Origin: Synergistaceae bacterium
GTDB lineage: Bacteria; Synergistota; Synergistia; Synergistales; Aminobacteriaceae
Length of the DNA: 50,347 bases
NCBI GenBank assembly: GCA_017448685.1
Contig: JAFSKY010000124.1
Span: 1-50,347 of the forward strand
Direction: 5' to 3'
Shown: one piece after another, positions 44,361 to 50,347 of the stretch
How the letters are laid out: each line of letters starts with the position of its first letter
Position numbering within the stretch: position 1 is the stretch's first letter
Program-made: the position numbers and the translations under genes
Notes under the pieces: model-generated
What the model saw: the letters and a program-made list of their open reading frames with translations, nothing else
What the model was told of the DNA's origin: nothing
Databases searched by the model: none

Positions 44361-44723
44361 TTGAACGCAGTAGATTTAGTGCAGAAGAAATACTATAGGG
44401 CAGAGCCGTTACCTGATTTCAGGCCGGGCGACACGCTCAGGGTTCACGTGAAAATCAAGGAAGGCACAAGAGAGCGTATACAGGTCTTTGAAGGCATCGT
44501 GATAGCCAAGCAGCACGGCGGACTTGATGAGACATTCACGGTGAGGAAGATCTCAAACGGTGTAGGCGTGGAGAGAATATTCCCGGTACATTGCCCCAGC
44601 ATAGACAAAGTAGAAGTACAGCGCAAAGGCAAAGTCAGAAGGGCGAAGCTGTATTACTTGCGCAAACTCAGCGGGAAGGCTGCGAGAATCAAAGAGCGCA
44701 GGAAGTTCACCGAAGCTCAGTAG
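44361..44723 (+). CDS. rplS: 50S ribosomal protein L19
   Basis: I chose TTG 44361 after GGGAGGA. Sequence includes [29 protein letters not shown]. Confidence 0.93.
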
Positions 44724-44740
44724 AGAGAGCGAGAAAGAAT

Positions 44741-44775
44741 CCCCTGTCATTACGGCGGGGGATATTTTTTTTTTT
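44741..44775 (+). terminator. Intrinsic terminator after rplS
   Basis: Hairpin cccctgtcattacggcggggg followed by a T11 run. The 21-mer is identical to the rpsI terminator hairpin. Confidence 0.8.
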
Positions 44776-44848
44776 GCCTAAATCATATCATGTAATCAGT
44801 AAAATTACGGTTGTAAAAAAAAATGGTGTGAAAATCGTACAAATTTCC

Positions 44849-45994
44849 ATGAAAGGAGTTTTTCGCGTGAATGTTATAGCGTTCCTGTTTGCGATTATCG
44901 GTGCTACCCTCAATATGTTTCAGCCAGTTATACGCACACCGGCTTCTGGATCAACTTTCACTGGCTCAATGTTTGATGCTGTCGGGACAATCATGACAAG
45001 CAGCTTGCCAGGTGAAGGAGGTACTGTCTTAGCGATTCTGATCTTGGCAGTGCTGTGTCTTGTTCCTGTGGTTGCGGCTGTTACGGGGCTGTTTATTCCG
45101 TCAAGCGAACGTGATAGGACTGTGATAATTCTTTTTCTCTGTGCGCTTGCAGATGGTCTAGCTGCTTGGGAAATTTATCATCTCTCTTCAGAAAGTTTTA
45201 TGTCCCCATTTCTCACAAATTATATTGTTCCATATGCGCAGAAGGTTTCGTTCATTGCTCCGGCTATATGGGCTACGTGCTATCTGATTGCCAGTGTTTT
45301 GGTTATGATTATGATTCTGAAAACGAAGCCAATGGATTCTTCAAAGACTGTTTATAAGTCAGTAGTATTTGGTCTTGGCTGGAGTAAGAAAACGAACTCA
45401 AAGTGTGATTTAGATGCCTGTGCTTTTCTTTTTGCTACTGGGGAATGTATCTTGAGTGCGGATGATGACATAATTTATGGTGGTAATACAAAACTAGAAG
45501 AATATCCGTTAGGCCCGATAGTGCATGGGTCAAAGGCGGTGTGGTTAACTGGTGATAACACGAGCGGTAACACGAAGGAAGGAAACGAGAAGGACGATTT
45601 AGAACAAATTATAGTCCTGCTGGACAAAGTCCCACCGGAAATACACAAAATTGTATTTGCCGTTACAGCTGTCAATTGCAGATTTAGACACGCCACAAGT
45701 CCACATGTCCAGCTTGTGGATATGGTGGATGTGGATGAAGACCATATCAAGGATAAAACGCTGAAGTTCGATCTTACACAGATAGGAAGAAATCTTGATT
45801 CGGATTTGGGAACTTCTACGTTGCAAACCTCAAAGGAGGGAGAAAGTCTGTCAGACAAGGATGCCCTCATTGTTGCGGAAATCCACAGGACGCCTAAGGG
45901 AGGCTGGGGCTGGAACAAAATCGAGGAAGCTAGGGACGGCGGATTTGACTCGCTATGCGAATATTACGGTATTCCGGTTCAGAGTAGGAGGTGA
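44849..45994 (+). CDS. Membrane-anchored TerD-domain protein
   Basis: About 4 N-terminal TM segments are followed by a TerD pattern: VFGLGW....CDLDACAFL, GDNTSG, DDLEQIIV.LDKVP.EIHKIVF.VT, IVAEIHR...GGWGWNKI. GTG 44867 with an AAAGGAG RBS is an alternative start. The track ORF start at 44591 overlaps rplS. Confidence 0.75.
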   Translation: MKGVFRVNVIAFLFAIIGATLNMFQPVIRTPASGSTFTGSMFDAVGTIMTSSLPGEGGTVLAILILAVLCLVPVVAAVTGLFIPSSERDRTVIILFLCALADGLAAWEIYHLSSESFMSPFLTNYIVPYAQKVSFIAPAIWATCYLIASVLVMIMILKTKPMDSSKTVYKSVVFGLGWSKKTNSKCDLDACAFLFATGECILSADDDIIYGGNTKLEEYPLGPIVHGSKAVWLTGDNTSGNTKEGNEKDDLEQIIVLLDKVPPEIHKIVFAVTAVNCRFRHATSPHVQLVDMVDVDEDHIKDKTLKFDLTQIGRNLDSDLGTSTLQTSKEGESLSDKDALIVAEIHRTPKGGWGWNKIEEARDGGFDSLCEYYGIPVQSRR

Positions 45995-46296: not shown

Positions 46297-46373
<77 letters not shown>

Positions 46374-46544
46374 GAATATAATACGGTGAAGACCGTTGAA
46401 AGATAAAAATCCGCTCACAAGGCGGTTTTTCTGTTATTATTACTCCGTTAAACACCGAGCAAAACCCACTAAAACCAAAATAACACCGTGTAAAGAATCG
46501 TAGAAATGCAAGCCGTGAAAATCTTTCTACGGTAAATCCCAAAA

Positions 46545-47698
46545 GTGAGGTGCGTACAGGAGTTGCAAGTCAAGAACATCAAGCCCAAAGATAAGCCCTA
46601 CATGCGCCGAGATGACCGGGGGCTGTACCTCAGAATTGACCCATCCGGGCGAAAGTATTGGATTCTTCGTTACTGGGAGCAAAAAAAGAACATCAACTAT
46701 CACTAGGACCGTACCCAGATTTATCGCTGAAAGATGCCCGACTCAAACGGGATGAGATTCAGACTGACCGCGCAAAAGGTAAAAGCCCTTCCATGAGGTC
46801 GGCGAATATCCCGCAAACATTCTCAGAGGCCGCCAGCGAATGGCTCAGAGTCCGCATGAAGGATAAAGCTCCCGGCTACTTGAAGACCATTCATTACCGC
46901 CTGAACAAATACATACTCCTGGCACTTGGGGCATTCCCCCTCCGGGACATAACGTCAGGGAATATCCTGCACATTTGCCGCAGAGTTGAGGATACTGGCC
47001 ACGATGAGACCGCAAAGAGAGTCAAAACGATAATCGGGCAGGTATACCGTTTTGCTATTGCGGCGGGCTGGGCTGACAGTGATCCGACATCCGCGCTACT
47101 GGGAGTGCTCCGGCCACGAATTAACCAGCACTACGCAACCCTCACGAATCCTTCAGACATAGCAATCCTGATGCGAGCAATGAAGGCGTATCCCTACACA
47201 GTGATACGGTGCGCGATGCTCTTCTCTGTGTATACTGCGGCGCGTCCCGGTGAAGTTCGTTATGCGGAATGGTCTGAGATTAAGGCTGACATGTGGGATA
47301 TACCTGCGGAAAAGATGAAGATGAAACGCCGACACATAGTCCCGCTGTCCTCGCAGGTGAAAGCCGTCCTTGAGGAACTGAAGCCAATTACAGGTACAAG
47401 CCGCTGGTTATTTCCCTCACCGCGTAATGACGGGCATTGCCTGTCAGAGAATGGTATACGGGTAGCTTTACGCACAATCGGCTTCACGAAGGAGCAAATT
47501 ACCCCTCACGGCTTCAGGGCTATGTTCTCGACAATCGCAAATGAACACGGCATTAATCGCGATGTTATCGAACGGCAATTAGCACATGTTGAGCGAAATT
47601 CCGTACGCGGGGCATACAATCACGCCGAATATTTACCCGAAAGAGTCAGGCTCATGCAGTGGTGGAGCGATTATCTTGACGGCCTCGCAAGGGGATAA
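46545..47698 (+). CDS. P4-like tyrosine integrase. The reading frame shifts by -1 at the A7 tract 46681-46687 (frameshifted, slippage-dependent, or a sequencing error).
   Basis: Frame 1 (GTG 46545 or TTG 46563) encodes ...VKNIKPKDKPYMRRDDRGLYLRIDPSGRKYWILRYWEQKK and stops at 46704. The -1 frame continues KEHQLSLGPYPDLSLKDAR..., then the catalytic region R...HGFR...LAH...Y. Confidence 0.8.
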
Positions 47699-47725
47699 AA
47701 AAACGGCCTCCCGTTAAAGGAGGTC
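47697..47725 (-). terminator. Intrinsic terminator of the amidoligase operon
   Basis: The minus strand has GACCTCCtttaacgGGAGGCC followed by gTTTTTTT. Confidence 0.7.
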
Positions 47726-47770
47726 GCTATCAAGCAAAACGCAGTACACGAGTGAGCGTTCGCGTATCTG

Positions 47771-48241
47771 CTAACGAGGCTTTAACCTGTCGAATGACTC
47801 AGCTAATGCCCCAGCAAGAATTTTATCATCAAAGCCGAATGCCTCATATCCCGCTTTTATCAACGAATAATAACGCTTGTCGGGAATGCATATCTTGATT
47901 CTGAGCTTCACGGCTTCAGGTGTCATGATATAGGCCATAGCTGAAATGTCGCCCAAATCCACACCATCAAGGGAGGTTACCCGGACATTCAGAGTCCGCT
48001 TGATGTAAAAATCCGGGTAGCCCTCGTAGCTGTCAAGATTCTTTTCATCCTCTGGCGTTATCTTCCACACTAGCACAGGCACGGTATATCCCTTGCGTTT
48101 TCTGATTGTGGCGTATTTGCGGAATAACAGTCGCCAGCCTTCCAGCACAGCAATTCCAGCAATTTCTGCGCCGGGTGTACGCACTTTCATTTGCTCCGTT
48201 GAAAGGTTGCTTCCGTACGCAAGATAGTAGCGCGTATTCAT
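47771..48241 (-). CDS. AIG2-like / gamma-glutamylcyclotransferase-family protein
   Basis: YLAYGSNLSTEQM...LEGWRLLF...VLVWKI...LDSYEGYP..Y. Confidence 0.8.
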   Translation of the reverse strand: MNTRYYLAYGSNLSTEQMKVRTPGAEIAGIAVLEGWRLLFRKYATIRKRKGYTVPVLVWKITPEDEKNLDSYEGYPDFYIKRTLNVRVTSLDGVDLGDISAMAYIMTPEAVKLRIKICIPDKRYYSLIKAGYEAFGFDDKILAGALAESFDRLKPR

Positions 48242-48247
48242 GGCCTG

Positions 48248-48478
48248 TTACCCGTCATAGCCGCCGATAACGGAATCGCACGGCATTGTTCCATCATCCT
48301 CGCGCCCGTCATCTATCACTTCTACCGTTATTCCATCGTAGTCGTCAAACTCATCAAGAATAATCTCAGTGTTCATGACCGCGTCCCTTGCGCGTTGTTC
48401 GGCATCCTCTTTGCTTCCAGCACGCACGGAAACCGCCTTGCGGCGAGTCTCCGTTATTGCGACTGTGTAGATATTCAT
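48248..48478 (-). CDS. Small acidic protein, DpnD/PcfM-like
   Basis: MNIYTVAITETRRKAVSVRAGSKEDAEQRARDAV.N.EIILDEFDDYD. Its ATG overlaps the amidoligase TGA (ATGA). ATG 48487 is an alternative start. Confidence 0.5.
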   Translation of the reverse strand: MNIYTVAITETRRKAVSVRAGSKEDAEQRARDAVMNTEIILDEFDDYDGITVEVIDDGREDDGTMPCDSVIGGYDG

Positions 48479-49410
48479 CTTCTCCATGCTCCATTTCCCT
48501 CCATATTCTGTAGCAGGATTGTTCTTGCTGTCTTGAACTCCTCACCGATAAATCCCAATCTCAGCAACCAGCAACGGAATGCGTATTTTTCGTTCTCCGT
48601 CTGCTGTGGCTTGGGGCTGGCGTATTTAAGCTCCTTTGCAAGCTGGCTCATTGCCAAGCATAACTGAATGTACGCTTTGAGTTGCCCGCAATGGATACCG
48701 CCCTTTTTGCCGTCATGAGGCTCATCAAACTGGAACAACCTAAACTCGATTGTACCCTTTGTGAACACCGCATGAAGGTTCAGCATGTGATAGCGGCTGA
48801 AATTGTAGTGGTCATTCCTGGCGTAATCGCACCTGTTGCCCTGATACCACACATCCGCAAGCTGTTCCATCGTTTGAGGCTTTTCAGCGTTCAGCCTTGC
48901 GAGAAATTCGGGGTCAACTGTCATGCAATAACGGACTGTCCTGTCATAATCGATTTTGATTGCCCTGCCGATTTGCTCCTCATGAGCCGCCATTATGTTT
49001 GCGAGATTCCTCAGAGTCTGGGGCGTGTGGTCGCTCACTCCGATGTGTATATGTACCCCGCATCCACGTGAAGGACTGCTCTGCGCTCCGGCCTTCCTCA
49101 ATGCCCGCAACAATCCCTGCAACGTTTCTATGTCGGCGTAATTGAGGATTGGCGTAACGAGTTCGCATTTCTGGTTGTCCGGGCCTTCTATGCTTCCATC
49201 CCGCTGGAATTTCCATTCGCGCCCGTCATTATCCCACGCTGAATATGCCTGATAGCCATTGCGCCCAGCTGTGTCCCCATAACGGTGTGTCCCGAAATAT
49301 TCGCCCGCTATTTTCGCCGCATTCGTACGGGTTATACCGTTCATTTCCACTTCGACTCCGATTGTCTGATTCTTCATTGCCGCTATTTGATGCTCTGTTC
49401 TGCTTGTCAT
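48475..49410 (-). CDS. Putative amidoligase (Amidoligase_2 family)
   Basis: Motifs GVEVEM, WKFQRDGSI, CELVTPIL, GCGVHIHIG and GTIEFRLF. Confidence 0.8.
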   Translation of the reverse strand: MTSRTEHQIAAMKNQTIGVEVEMNGITRTNAAKIAGEYFGTHRYGDTAGRNGYQAYSAWDNDGREWKFQRDGSIEGPDNQKCELVTPILNYADIETLQGLLRALRKAGAQSSPSRGCGVHIHIGVSDHTPQTLRNLANIMAAHEEQIGRAIKIDYDRTVRYCMTVDPEFLARLNAEKPQTMEQLADVWYQGNRCDYARNDHYNFSRYHMLNLHAVFTKGTIEFRLFQFDEPHDGKKGGIHCGQLKAYIQLCLAMSQLAKELKYASPKPQQTENEKYAFRCWLLRLGFIGEEFKTARTILLQNMEGNGAWRR

Positions 49411-49500
49411 TTCCGTTTGCTCCTTCGTGATTGTTACTGCGTTTTTGCTTTATGAACGTAGTATAACTCTTAGCGCGTTAAATGCAAGTCCTATTTTATT
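49411..49500 (-). promoter_or_regulatory. Promoter + leader module, copy A (upstream of the amidoligase)
   Basis: The minus strand has TTGCAT, 16 nt, TATACT, then a ~50-nt leader ending GAAGGAGcaaacggaaATG. It is ~90% identical by eye to 50186-50275. Confidence 0.6.
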
Positions 49501-49523
49501 TCTTTTTACGGAGAAATGAGCCC

Positions 49524-49546
49524 AAAAAACAGGGGGATAACCCCCC
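49524..49546 (-). terminator. Intrinsic terminator after the 84-aa gene
   Basis: The minus strand has GGGGGttatCCCCC followed by tgTTTTTT. Confidence 0.65.
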
Positions 49547-49547
49547 A

Positions 49548-49802
49548 CTATTCAAGCCTCATAAGGAAGGCCGGTGATGGCACAACCTCGAACGTGTTAA
49601 TGTCGATGTCCGTTCCTATGACCTGTGTAAGCCCGATAAGTTTTGCGCCGTTCGCCTCATACACTGCAAGCGTCCGTGTCATTCCGCATGAACCGTCCGA
49701 AATCGTAAACTCCTTCACGCCTGAAGCCCTCATCCTTTGCACTATTTCGTGTATATCTTTGTCCCAGCCTGACCAGCTAAGATTTGGCCTGTTCTCTGTC
49801 AT
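49548..49802 (-). CDS. Hypothetical 84-aa protein, paralog of 49841..50185
   Basis: AAGGAGG RBS. It shares the EFTIS...GLT.V...SPAFLM(R/K)(L/I)E end with its neighbour. Confidence 0.6.
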   Translation of the reverse strand: MTENRPNLSWSGWDKDIHEIVQRMRASGVKEFTISDGSCGMTRTLAVYEANGAKLIGLTQVIGTDIDINTFEVVPSPAFLMRLE

Positions 49803-49840
49803 TTTCTCTGCCTCCTTAAATGCAGGGGGATAACCCCTCG

Positions 49841-50185
49841 CTATTCAATCTTCATCAGGAACGCGGGTGAAAATCCCGTTTCGCTGTATTTGTCCCTCAC
49901 GCTTGTGAGGCCCGCTATGTTGATGTCGAAATCGCTGAACGCATCGAGGATTTCCAGAATGTTCGATTGATGGCTCGAAATCGTGAACTCCGTCATGCCT
50001 GCGTCCTTAAGCGTTGTCGCAATCTGCACAACATCTTCAATCCAGATTACTCCGTTGAACTCGACAAGCGGTTTCATTTCGTCCCGGTAAGCGTTGTATG
50101 CCTCGCTGATTGTCCGATTGTCCGTTGACCTGTCGTATTTGCGCTCCCTGCTGTAGATTTCCTCGTATTTCGTGATGATTATCAT
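49841..50185 (-). CDS. Hypothetical 114-aa protein, paralog of 49548..49802
   Basis: Same C-terminal module, ending SPAFLMKIE. Confidence 0.6.
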   Translation of the reverse strand: MIIITKYEEIYSRERKYDRSTDNRTISEAYNAYRDEMKPLVEFNGVIWIEDVVQIATTLKDAGMTEFTISSHQSNILEILDAFSDFDINIAGLTSVRDKYSETGFSPAFLMKIE

Positions 50186-50275
50186 TTTGCGTTTGCTCCT
50201 TCCTGATGATTACTGCGTTTCCGCTTGATGAACGTAGTATAACTCTTAGTGCGTTAAATGCAAGTATATTTTATT
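50186..50275 (-). promoter_or_regulatory. Promoter + leader module, copy B (upstream of the 114-aa gene)
   Basis: Near-duplicate of 49411-49500, including the TTGCAT/TATACT elements and the leader. Confidence 0.6.
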
Positions 50276-50319
50276 CATGTAAGGTGATAAAATGCGGGCA
50301 TTAAAGGAGGCAAATCGTA

Positions 50320-50347
50320 ATGGACATATCAGACCTCATAACAGCAG
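50320..50347 (+). CDS. Start of an unidentified gene (partial)
   Basis: AAAGGAGG lies 8 nt before the ATG. Only MDISDLITA is visible. Confidence 0.3.

Follow-up and report, generated by a model that had tools for sequence, protein, structure and literature searches.

A ligase-cyclotransferase pair with proposed gamma-glutamyl chemistry at the integrase end of a temperate phage of rumen Synergistaceae

The DNA analysed here (the window) is an entire NCBI contig of 50,347 bp from a Synergistaceae bacterium, and the end of the contig falls inside a mobile element whose terminal genes are the subject of this investigation. The region belongs to a temperate phage located at a tRNA-Ala gene of rumen Synergistaceae, of which it forms the accessory ('moron') end next to the integrase. 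It carries, on the minus strand, an operon encoding an Amidoligase_2 carboxylate-amine ligase, a small acidic protein and a gamma-glutamyl cyclotransferase (GGCT)/AIG2-like protein. The two enzymes belong to recognised families, retain the conserved motifs of those families and recur together, in one fixed order, in phage genomes. The best explanation overall, favoured with a modest degree of confidence, is that they form a phage-borne two-enzyme gamma-glutamyl module in which the ligase would make, and the cyclotransferase would cleave, a gamma-glutamyl amide, most plausibly in the service of host takeover or counter-defence. The operon comprises the following genes.

48475-49410, minus strand: Amidoligase_2 protein (carboxylate-amine ligase with a predicted glutamine synthetase (GS)/glutamate-cysteine ligase (GCL) fold), 311 aa; Pfam 2e-52, PHROG 2443.
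48248-48487, minus strand: DpnD/PcfM-like small acidic protein, 79 aa; Pfam PF14207 2.5e-11.
47771-48241, minus strand: GGCT/AIG2-like gamma-glutamyl cyclotransferase, 156 aa; Pfam GGACT 2.5e-12, AIG2_2 1.5e-6; PHROG 2520 4e-37.

The three family assignments proposed in an initial annotation of this DNA hold in profile searches, each exceeding its Pfam cut-off. The ligase scores 179 bits against PF12224 (cut-off 22), its residues 13-254 spanning profile positions 1-244 of 245, and matches PHROG 2443 at 5e-108; its translation contains the motifs GVEVEM, WKFQRDGSI, CELVTPIL, GCGVHIHIG and GTIEFRLF that the annotation had quoted. Across 154 loci, conservation reaches at least 97% at residues E20, E22, E83, H120, H122, E222 and R224; judging by motif resemblance, these glutamates, histidines and arginine may be the counterparts of the GS catalytic residues for metal, ATP and the acyl-phosphate intermediate. 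An AlphaFold2 (AF2) model of the ligase (pLDDT 85, pTM 0.87) predicts the fold of the GS and GCL enzymes, the best solved structures in a Foldseek search being the gamma-GCL domains of GshF (3LN7/3LN6, probability 1.0), followed by E. coli gamma-glutamylcysteine synthetase (gamma-GCS; 1VA6) and glutamine synthetases; the model also matches many phage 'amidoligase' models in BFVD. At its C-terminus the protein has a helical module of approximately 67 aa (residues 244-310), which is also present in a gene annotated as 'virulence-related protein' that is discussed below. As a separate observation, an open frame of approximately 380 aa runs antisense to the amidoligase gene in about 49 loci and exceeds the length of that gene (for example, L059:2791-3933, minus strand); the longest antisense open reading frame (ORF) over the amidoligase in the window is 129 aa, and the long frame is probably an effect of codon composition.

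The cyclotransferase scores 47.8 bits against GGACT (PF06094, cut-off 22.8) and 29 bits against AIG2_2 (PF13772, cut-off 27). The motif YGSNL, which the annotation had also pointed out, lies at residues 9-13 and aligns exactly with that of human GGCT (2PN7), the best solved match (E 2.8e-5). Residue E73 falls in the column where the E98Q entry 3CRY departs from wild-type human GGCT, and both YGSNL and E73-G74 are at least 97% conserved in the same 154 loci. The start that is consistent with the family is position 48241, giving 156 aa; in several assemblies the gene callers placed the start 19 codons late, yielding a 137-aa product from which YGSNL is lost. Across loci the median identity to the window copy is 41% for the cyclotransferase and 68% for the ligase. 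The two identities are uncorrelated (Spearman 0.007), a value that is uninformative because nearly all of the ligases fall between 66 and 70% identity.

The distribution of the two genes is revealing of their association. A total of 167 loci was fetched, of which 161 are non-redundant. A cyclotransferase homolog lies downstream of the ligase on the same strand in 161 of the 167 fetched loci, usually 80-100 nucleotides (nt) away, and the order is ligase then cyclotransferase in every one of these pair loci. Five of the six remaining loci end within approximately 450 nt of the ligase, and in the sixth (L075) the match runs to the end of the contig. The ligase itself is abundant: a word-filtered search at E <= 1e-5 returned more than 8,000 clusters at 90% identity, the best 120 of which are all at least 70% identical, and 4,643 representatives of 50%-identity clusters score E <= 0.001. 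Confirmed matches number at least 387 in species-representative genomes and at least 563 in IMG/VR viral contigs. Ligases 66-78% identical to that of the window occur on contigs assigned to Synergistota, Bacillota and Pseudomonadota, and the isolate Succinimonas amylolytica DSM 2873 carries the full phage layout together with the pair.

Clustering of neighbouring genes and annotation of the cluster representatives yielded a recurrent gene order. This begins with a D5-like primase, an SNF2 helicase, a sigma-r4/DUF1492 regulator, an HNH gene and the small terminase, continues with a gene resembling S-adenosylmethionine (SAM) synthetase, a ParB-N6 methylase, a C5 methylase, DUF4314, the ligase, the cyclotransferase and a zinc-ribbon protein, and ends with the large terminase (TerL), portal, ClpP and capsid genes. 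TerL, portal or capsid genes are present in 83 of the 102 loci that have at least 8 kb of downstream sequence. Most relatives are gut siphophages of the Heliusvirales type, with the pair placed after the DNA methylases and before the large terminase. The complete Acutalibacteraceae phage NatCom_991 (Ca. Heliusvirales) has the pair annotated as 'amidoligase enzyme' and 'gamma-glutamyl cyclotransferase', and the same gene order was listed in 2012 for module B of Tn6164 of C. difficile (PMC3485107) and in 2024 for prophages of C. clostridioforme LM41 (PMC11318856). The Ca. Heliusvirales have been reported as widespread in the human gut (PMC11283538); the paper that reports this does not mention the ligase-cyclotransferase pair. 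One locus (L183:8188-9239) has two tandem cyclotransferase paralogs after the ligase and PcfM-like genes; next come DUF4314, the pair AAA_21/RloB, DUF7698 and Nmad4, and only then the small (TerS) and large terminase genes.

The carrier of the window operon is likewise a temperate phage and not a conjugative island. Two loci (L001 and L002) are identical to the window (100%) across the 7,347 bases compared, and the amidoligase sequence of the window is found, identical, on nine further contigs. Locus L001 reaches 10 kb beyond the contig end and there encodes an HTH_17 protein, an 84-aa product, a holin, a GH108/PG_binding_3 endolysin, XkdX, a 417-aa protein, a 1005-aa protein and a Gp53-like tail fibre, so that lysis and virion genes are contiguous with the integrase end. 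Sister prophages show the same end block, composed of a holin, HTH_17, one to three DUF7698 genes, the ligase, the PcfM-like gene and the cyclotransferase, and then the integrase; these adjoin tRNA-Ala(cgc), tRNA-Val(cac), tRNA-Ser(tga) and transfer-messenger RNA (tmRNA) genes. In L001, L168 and L170 the Pfam families precomputed for the upstream 10 kb are those of phage genes and include no relaxase, coupling protein or type IV secretion family; several products in this stretch have no Pfam match at all. The operon had been described as the cargo of an island acting during element transfer; given the phage holin, endolysin, XkdX and tail genes on the matching contigs, the conjugative sense of such transfer is therefore inapplicable. 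The expected Firmicutes-type setting is also not that of the window, whose host, represented by a metagenome-assembled genome, is a member of the Synergistaceae according to the names of the proteins that cluster at 90% identity with the flanking TrmD and L19.

The chemistry proposed for the pair follows from what is known of the two folds. Enzymes with the GGCT fold cleave gamma-glutamyl amides that bear a free alpha-amine, giving 5-oxoproline, and the top-ranked Foldseek enzymes that share the ligase fold activate the gamma-carboxylate of glutamate. By this analogy the ligase would convert the gamma-carboxylate of L-glutamate into an acyl phosphate at the expense of ATP and would then couple it to a primary amine, giving gamma-Glu-NH-R. 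The glutamyl alpha-amine would then attack the amide in the active site of the GGCT-like enzyme, releasing 5-oxoproline and regenerating R-NH2. The pair may in this manner place a gamma-glutamyl mark and erase it again, or serve to protect an amine and later free it; with both enzymes acting at once, glutamate and ATP would be converted to 5-oxoproline with the amine as a carrier, as in a truncated gamma-glutamyl cycle. The target would be an amine that many hosts share, for example that of a polyamine or amino acid, or else a lysine or N-terminus of a conserved protein: because ligases of 66-78% identity occur in Synergistota, Bacillota and Pseudomonadota, a common molecule is a more probable target than a phage-specific partner. 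A role in host takeover or counter-defence, rather than in housekeeping metabolism, is suggested by the genomic company of the pair, which consists of DNA methylases, SAM synthetase and other accessory genes. Confidence in the gamma-glutamyl chemistry is moderate, and confidence in the host takeover or counter-defence role is low.

Several observations weigh against this explanation. The Foldseek alignments of the ligase have 10-14% identity and modest TM-scores of 0.4-0.5, and a sequence-profile search for solved homologs of the ligase returned none. Some enzymes of the GS/GCL fold activate carboxylates of other kinds, an example being PafA, which acts on a protein-terminal glutamate; glutamate as the acyl donor is thus suggested by the partner enzyme. 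Pairing a ligase with an enzyme that reverses its reaction seems futile unless the two activities are kept apart temporally or spatially. Counter-defence is suggested by the gene neighbourhood, and PADLOC models, a library that spans defence and not anti-defence, gave no match. Finally, the integrase is frameshifted in the window, and the cassette may now serve the host and not a mobile phage. In agreement with the earlier statement that no function was known from experiment, the literature searched contained no experimental study of the pair.

The small acidic protein is less constant than the enzymes that flank it. Its product is 76 aa from an ATG at 48478, as had been stated, and this ATG overlaps the TGA stop of the ligase gene; relatives begin at the equivalent methionine. 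The operon is tightly packed, with that overlap at one side of the small gene and a gap of 6 nt before the cyclotransferase gene at the other. The protein scores 43.9 bits against PF14207 (cut-off 25; residues 7-52 spanning profile positions 1-45 of 46) and has a pI of 4.14, with 20 Asp/Glu and nine Lys/Arg residues. With an iterated profile, a PcfM-like gene was found in 44 of the 167 loci (38 of the 161 non-redundant loci, approximately 24%). Where it is present it always lies between the two enzyme genes and nowhere else in 20 kb. Because the enzymes occur in nearly all loci and this gene in only about a quarter, the enzyme pair constitutes the system, and the PcfM-like protein is an optional insert of one sub-clade, neither an obligate substrate nor a tag. 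Thus, of the three genes that had been expected to be conserved together, the two enzymes are and the small protein is not. A fusion of the PcfM-like protein to the cyclotransferase, which long cyclotransferase ORFs had suggested, was rejected when domain-level matches showed the PcfM-like ORF to be separate in every case. An AF2 model of the protein reached moderate confidence (pLDDT 66.6) and Foldseek returned nothing significant (best E 2.1), while a literature search on PcfM, DpnD and the DUF names yielded unrelated acronyms only.

It had been suggested that the small protein is the partner in a peptide-tagging or small-molecule system. Read as tagging, this would have the ligase attach it to a target, or attach glutamate onto it, during island transfer, with the cyclotransferase as eraser in a manner resembling Pup, PafA and Dop. 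The arrangement has features in its favour, since a GS-like ligase stands beside a translationally coupled acidic protein of 76-79 aa (pI 4.1) with a glycine-rich tail, the small gene where present is placed exactly between the two enzymes, and the tails of one sub-clade terminate in ...KGG..E. However, the small gene is absent from 123 of the 161 non-redundant loci, in which the enzyme genes lie 80-100 nt apart. The invariant C-terminal Gly-Gly-Glu/Gln of Pup is not present on the PcfM-like proteins: a core of approximately 55 aa is conserved, whereas tail length varies and the final residue may be G, R, S, A, E, D, K or Y. The protein is never fused to either enzyme, and its 120 best database homologs are all stand-alone proteins of 76-88 aa. 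The chemistry of GGCT enzymes also requires a free glutamyl alpha-amine, which a C-terminal glutamate of a protein does not have, and the carrier is a phage. Tagging is therefore very unlikely, and the notion of a required partner or tag is not borne out. In the gamma-glutamyl module favoured here, the PcfM-like protein would be an optional accessory inserted between the two genes.

The commonest third partner of the pair is a different protein. In 130 of the 161 loci, the strand that carries the ligase also encodes, 1-2 kb further upstream, a product of 216-290 aa that some phage annotations name 'virulence-related protein' (for example, L182:7993-8670 and L185:4584-5234). It has no Pfam match and shares PHROG 2443 with the ligase. 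In a profile-profile comparison (hhalign) it aligns with ligase residues 93-318 at a probability of 99.75% (E 2.4e-27). The ligase segment at approximately 160-215 is deleted from it, and cISMP and VSFPWF stand in place of GVHIHIG and IEFRLF; the protein is therefore a paralog of the amidoligase with an internal deletion and, by these replacements, most probably without catalytic activity. The putatively dead paralog retains the C-terminal helical module of approximately 67 aa (NEKYAFRCFLLRLGFIG.E.K..RK.LL..L.G..AF), with 46% identity to the window ligase, and the sharing of this module suggests macromolecular interactions. In Streptococcus Javan phages the putatively dead paralog fills the slot from methylase to TerL, a stretch in which no gene is annotated as amidoligase or cyclotransferase. 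The paralog is absent from the integrase-proximal clade to which the window belongs (four loci, with at least 9 kb upstream examined). A more elaborate form of the takeover explanation, which is distinctly unlikely, would have the ligase, with or without its presumed dead paralog, and the cyclotransferase transiently gamma-glutamylate a universal host amine, candidates for which include a polyamine, an amine-bearing immune signal and a lysine or N-terminus of a conserved host protein, with the PcfM-like and DUF7698 proteins replacing the paralog as adaptors in the Synergistaceae clade. If true, this would represent a new class of phage-encoded reversible modification by a small group.

Alternatively the pair may be auxiliary metabolic genes, running a truncated gamma-glutamyl cycle by which the host's pools of glutamate, nitrogen or 5-oxoproline are altered, or ATP is depleted, for the benefit of phage replication or of the lysogen. 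The nearest solved folds are indeed gamma-GCL and GGCT, which jointly make 5-oxoproline in the gamma-glutamyl cycle, the category of PHROG 2520 is 'moron, auxiliary metabolic gene and host takeover', and the cassette occupies a moron position here with a promoter-like element of its own. Phage amidoligase and GGCT genes have been interpreted in this way (PMC10945688; PMC11318856), in claims that are themselves based on annotation. Most phages, however, keep the pair among DNA methylase and packaging genes and not among metabolic genes, and the metabolic explanation leaves unexplained this company, the putatively dead paralog and the C-terminal helical module common to ligase and paralog. It is accordingly considered unlikely.

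The same methylase company might instead reflect hypermodification of DNA or nucleotides, with glutamate added to an amine-bearing base, or an intermediate processed, within an anti-restriction block. The Heliusvirales-type flanks include SAM-synthetase-like, ParB-N6 methylase, PAPS-reductase-like and C5 methylase genes, with Nmad4 in one phage, and genes of the amidoligase family co-occur with thymidine hypermodification genes in viral metagenomes (PMC8989533). Against this, no 5-hydroxymethyldeoxyuridine (5-hmdU) kinase, aGPT-Pplase, dUMP hydroxymethylase or TET/JBP gene was seen in the neighbourhoods, the cassette of the window clade is detached from every DNA-modification gene, and a cyclotransferase that strips glutamyl groups would reverse a stable DNA mark, making such a role highly improbable. 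Modification of the envelope is more improbable still: in this case the ligase would amidate or glutamylate a peptidoglycan or teichoic-acid precursor and so block adsorption of competing phages, a role for the amidoligase of phiEco32 that PMC11318856 credits to Iyer et al. 2009. The moron position in a prophage is compatible with lysogenic conversion of this type. The pair is nevertheless found at 66-78% identity in monoderm Bacillota and in diderm Synergistota and Pseudomonadota despite their differing envelopes, has no co-conserved membrane or secretion genes, and lies mostly in a late-type block beside the terminase.

Comparison with described systems places the pair among known relatives. 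An association of Amidoligase_2 with AIG2 in Firmicutes-type elements was reportedly noted by Iyer, Abhiman, Burroughs and Aravind in 2009 and in the Pfam note for PF12224. The closest likeness is to the pair of Firmicutes elements and phages (PHROGs 2443/2520; Orf22/23 of Tn6164; LM41; NatCom_991), which has the same families, order and strand, with ligases 66-78% identical. The window differs from it in the DpnD/PcfM gene inserted between the enzymes, in lacking the upstream, putatively dead paralog and DUF4314, in the placement of the cassette beside the integrase with its own promoter-like element and not in the slot between methylases and TerL, and in its Synergistota host.

The best structural and sequence matches come from the gamma-glutamyl cycle (GshA or the N-domain of GshF together with human GGCT, 2PN7), in which such a pair makes and cleaves gamma-glutamyl amides. 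The window ligase, however, has 311 aa where GshA and GshF have roughly 500 or more, carries the extra C-terminal helical module and has no glutathione synthetase partner; sequence profiles give no support for its membership in the GshA family. Polyamine gamma-glutamylation is known for GlnA3 of actinomycetes (PMC11841054). In that system and in PuuA/PuuD of E. coli a GS-fold ligase likewise makes a gamma-glutamyl amine that a second enzyme cleaves, the likeness being one of shared fold; the remover in PuuA/PuuD differs in that it is a GATase-like hydrolase acting after oxidation and not a cyclotransferase. Clusters in proteobacterial phages (LUZ24-like, Pseudomonas phage tf, Phage-ZRK32) combine a ligase with a glutamine amidotransferase, with or without an ATP-grasp enzyme and GGCT (PMC3890496; PMC10945688). 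These clusters share the ligase superfamily, and their partner enzyme can cleave gamma-glutamyl amides, but identity to the window is below approximately 25%, the partner enzymes are others, and the carriers are lytic podoviruses and not temperate siphophages.

Pupylation (PafA, Dop and Pup) resembles the window in combining a GS-like ligase with a small, acidic, partly disordered protein. Pup is nevertheless obligatory and has an invariant C-terminal GGQ/GGE, where the tail of the window type is variable and its gene optional, and the pupylation eraser is a paralog of the ligase where the candidate eraser in the window is a cyclotransferase. The butirosin proteins BtrJ, BtrI and BtrG reportedly (Llewellyn, Li and Spencer 2007) follow the same three-part logic as the window operon: a ligase acts with a small acidic carrier protein, and an AIG2-like cyclotransferase takes off the gamma-glutamyl group that had served as protection. 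In contrast, BtrJ is an ATP-grasp enzyme and BtrI a phosphopantetheinylated acyl carrier protein, whereas the PcfM-like protein matches PF14207 only and its model has no significant structural neighbour; moreover, no other biosynthetic genes are co-conserved with the window pair.

The association of the ligase with AIG2, the presence of both families in PHROGs and the annotation of the pair in published phage genomes were thus already known. New in this investigation are the assignment to a prophage in a Synergistota host, the recognition of the PcfM insert as a variant specific to one clade, the shift of the cassette to the integrase end, where a repeated promoter-like element precedes it, and the putatively dead ligase paralog as the commonest third partner. 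The window adds a modest variation on a system that is known but uncharacterised, and a specialist would hardly be surprised by it; the copy it carries is an ordinary member with a degraded integrase. The ligase-cyclotransferase pair is, however, among the commoner accessory modules of gut and rumen phages, and an assay is worthwhile because it is so common. The comparison separates a conserved core of two enzymes from the optional parts (PcfM, DUF7698, DUF4314), and narrows the probable chemistry to formation of a gamma-glutamyl amide and its cyclising removal, so that a vague 'tagging system' gives way to a short list of assays.

The elements around the operon, and the genes between it and the contig end, are as follows.

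47702-47723, both strands: bidirectional terminator-like hairpin that separates the integrase stop from the end of the operon and has a T-run on each strand; CCTCCTTTAACGGGAGG followed by a minus-strand T-run.
49411-49489, minus strand: promoter-like element and 5' leader of the ligase operon; TTGCAT at 49487-49482, TATACT at 49465-49460 and an AAGGAG ribosome-binding site.
49532-49546, minus strand: terminator-like hairpin after the DUF7698 genes; GGGGGGTTATCCCCC followed by TGTTTTTT.
49548-49802, minus strand: DUF7698 protein, 84 aa; Pfam PF24753 3e-14, PHROG 21141.
49841-50185, minus strand: DUF7698 paralog, 114 aa; Pfam PF24753 1e-18, PHROG 21141.
50186-50265, minus strand: second copy of the promoter and leader, upstream of the DUF7698 genes; an 80-nt direct repeat, 90% identical.
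50320-50347, plus strand: first part of a divergent HTH_17 (excisionase/MerR-like) gene, truncated where the contig stops; the full gene of 110 aa is present in L001.

The initial annotation had credited the operon with a promoter and a terminator of its own. The terminator is present as a hairpin and T-run on the minus strand (47723-47707). As to the promoter, a scan with the generic sigma-70 consensus called none at the ligase operon, yet a promoter-like element is there and is repeated. The 80-nt repeat has the layout CTTGCAT-N11-AGAGTTATACT, a conserved leader, and then AAGGAG and ATG. The motif stands at the same two positions in the sister prophages L009, L010, L168 and L170, whose ligases are approximately 76-77% identical at the protein level, and nine of its 10 matches in 5.2 Mb of fetched sequence fall in these elements. 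The 5' leader gave no Rfam match as a riboswitch or structured RNA, and its stability was not above that of shuffled sequences; most copies contain a GCGGAAACGC mini-hairpin and no stable fold.

The two DUF7698 genes and the divergent HTH_17 gene (3.6e-8 for the 110-aa product of L001) belong to the same block as the ligase operon. DUF7698 proteins have a conserved terminal motif, SPAFLM+IE, and occur near the ligase-cyclotransferase pair in both genomic contexts. They are often found in two or three tandem copies, and in many Heliusvirales-type loci (L078, L038, L183) they lie between the cyclotransferase and TerL.

At the other end of the element lie the tRNA gene and the integrase, both of which had been recognised previously and are present according to ARAGORN, Rfam and Pfam.

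46298-46373, plus strand: tRNA-Ala(GGC), integration target on the attL side; ARAGORN, Rfam tRNA 70.1 bits.
46348-46373, plus strand: putative attachment (att) core, the T-arm and acceptor end at the tRNA 3' side, placed from contig break points.
46545-47698, plus strand: P4-type tyrosine integrase, frameshifted; Pfam Arm-DNA-bind_3, Phage_int_M and Phage_integrase.

Two metagenome contigs from other samples (L175 and L176) stop within the tRNA at approximately 46347, and in a third the sequence on the integrase side becomes a different one approximately 130 nt beyond the tRNA. These assembly break points fit an att core in the 3' end of the tRNA and heterogeneity of the population at this site. 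A second copy of the tRNA 3' end (attR) was found in none of the fetched loci, all matching contigs stopping inside the element, and the direct repeats looked for in L170, the sister element associated with tmRNA, included none resembling an att site. Contigs that share an identical L19 contain the prophage, a break in the tRNA or another integrase variant, and none of them yielded a clean empty site.

The integrase starts 172 nt past the tRNA, and its reading frame is broken in two at a run of seven adenines (A7, 46681-46687). The frame at 46545-46703 corresponds to residues 2-46 of an intact relative of 381 aa (P0144), and that at 46658-47695 to residues 45-379 of the same protein at 92% identity; the other members of its 90%-identity cluster have lengths of 381-383 aa. 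Since the A7 run is identical in four other metagenome assemblies (L001-L004), the frameshift is probably not an error of one assembly. Owing to this frameshift, the prophage copy in the window may have lost its mobility and become fixed in place in the lineage.

The host gene directly before the tRNA (44591-45994) codes for a protein that has a TerD domain and whose N-terminal half is long and hydrophobic. In the variant contig L181 the tRNA lies approximately 150 nt after rplS, leaving no space for the TerD-domain gene.

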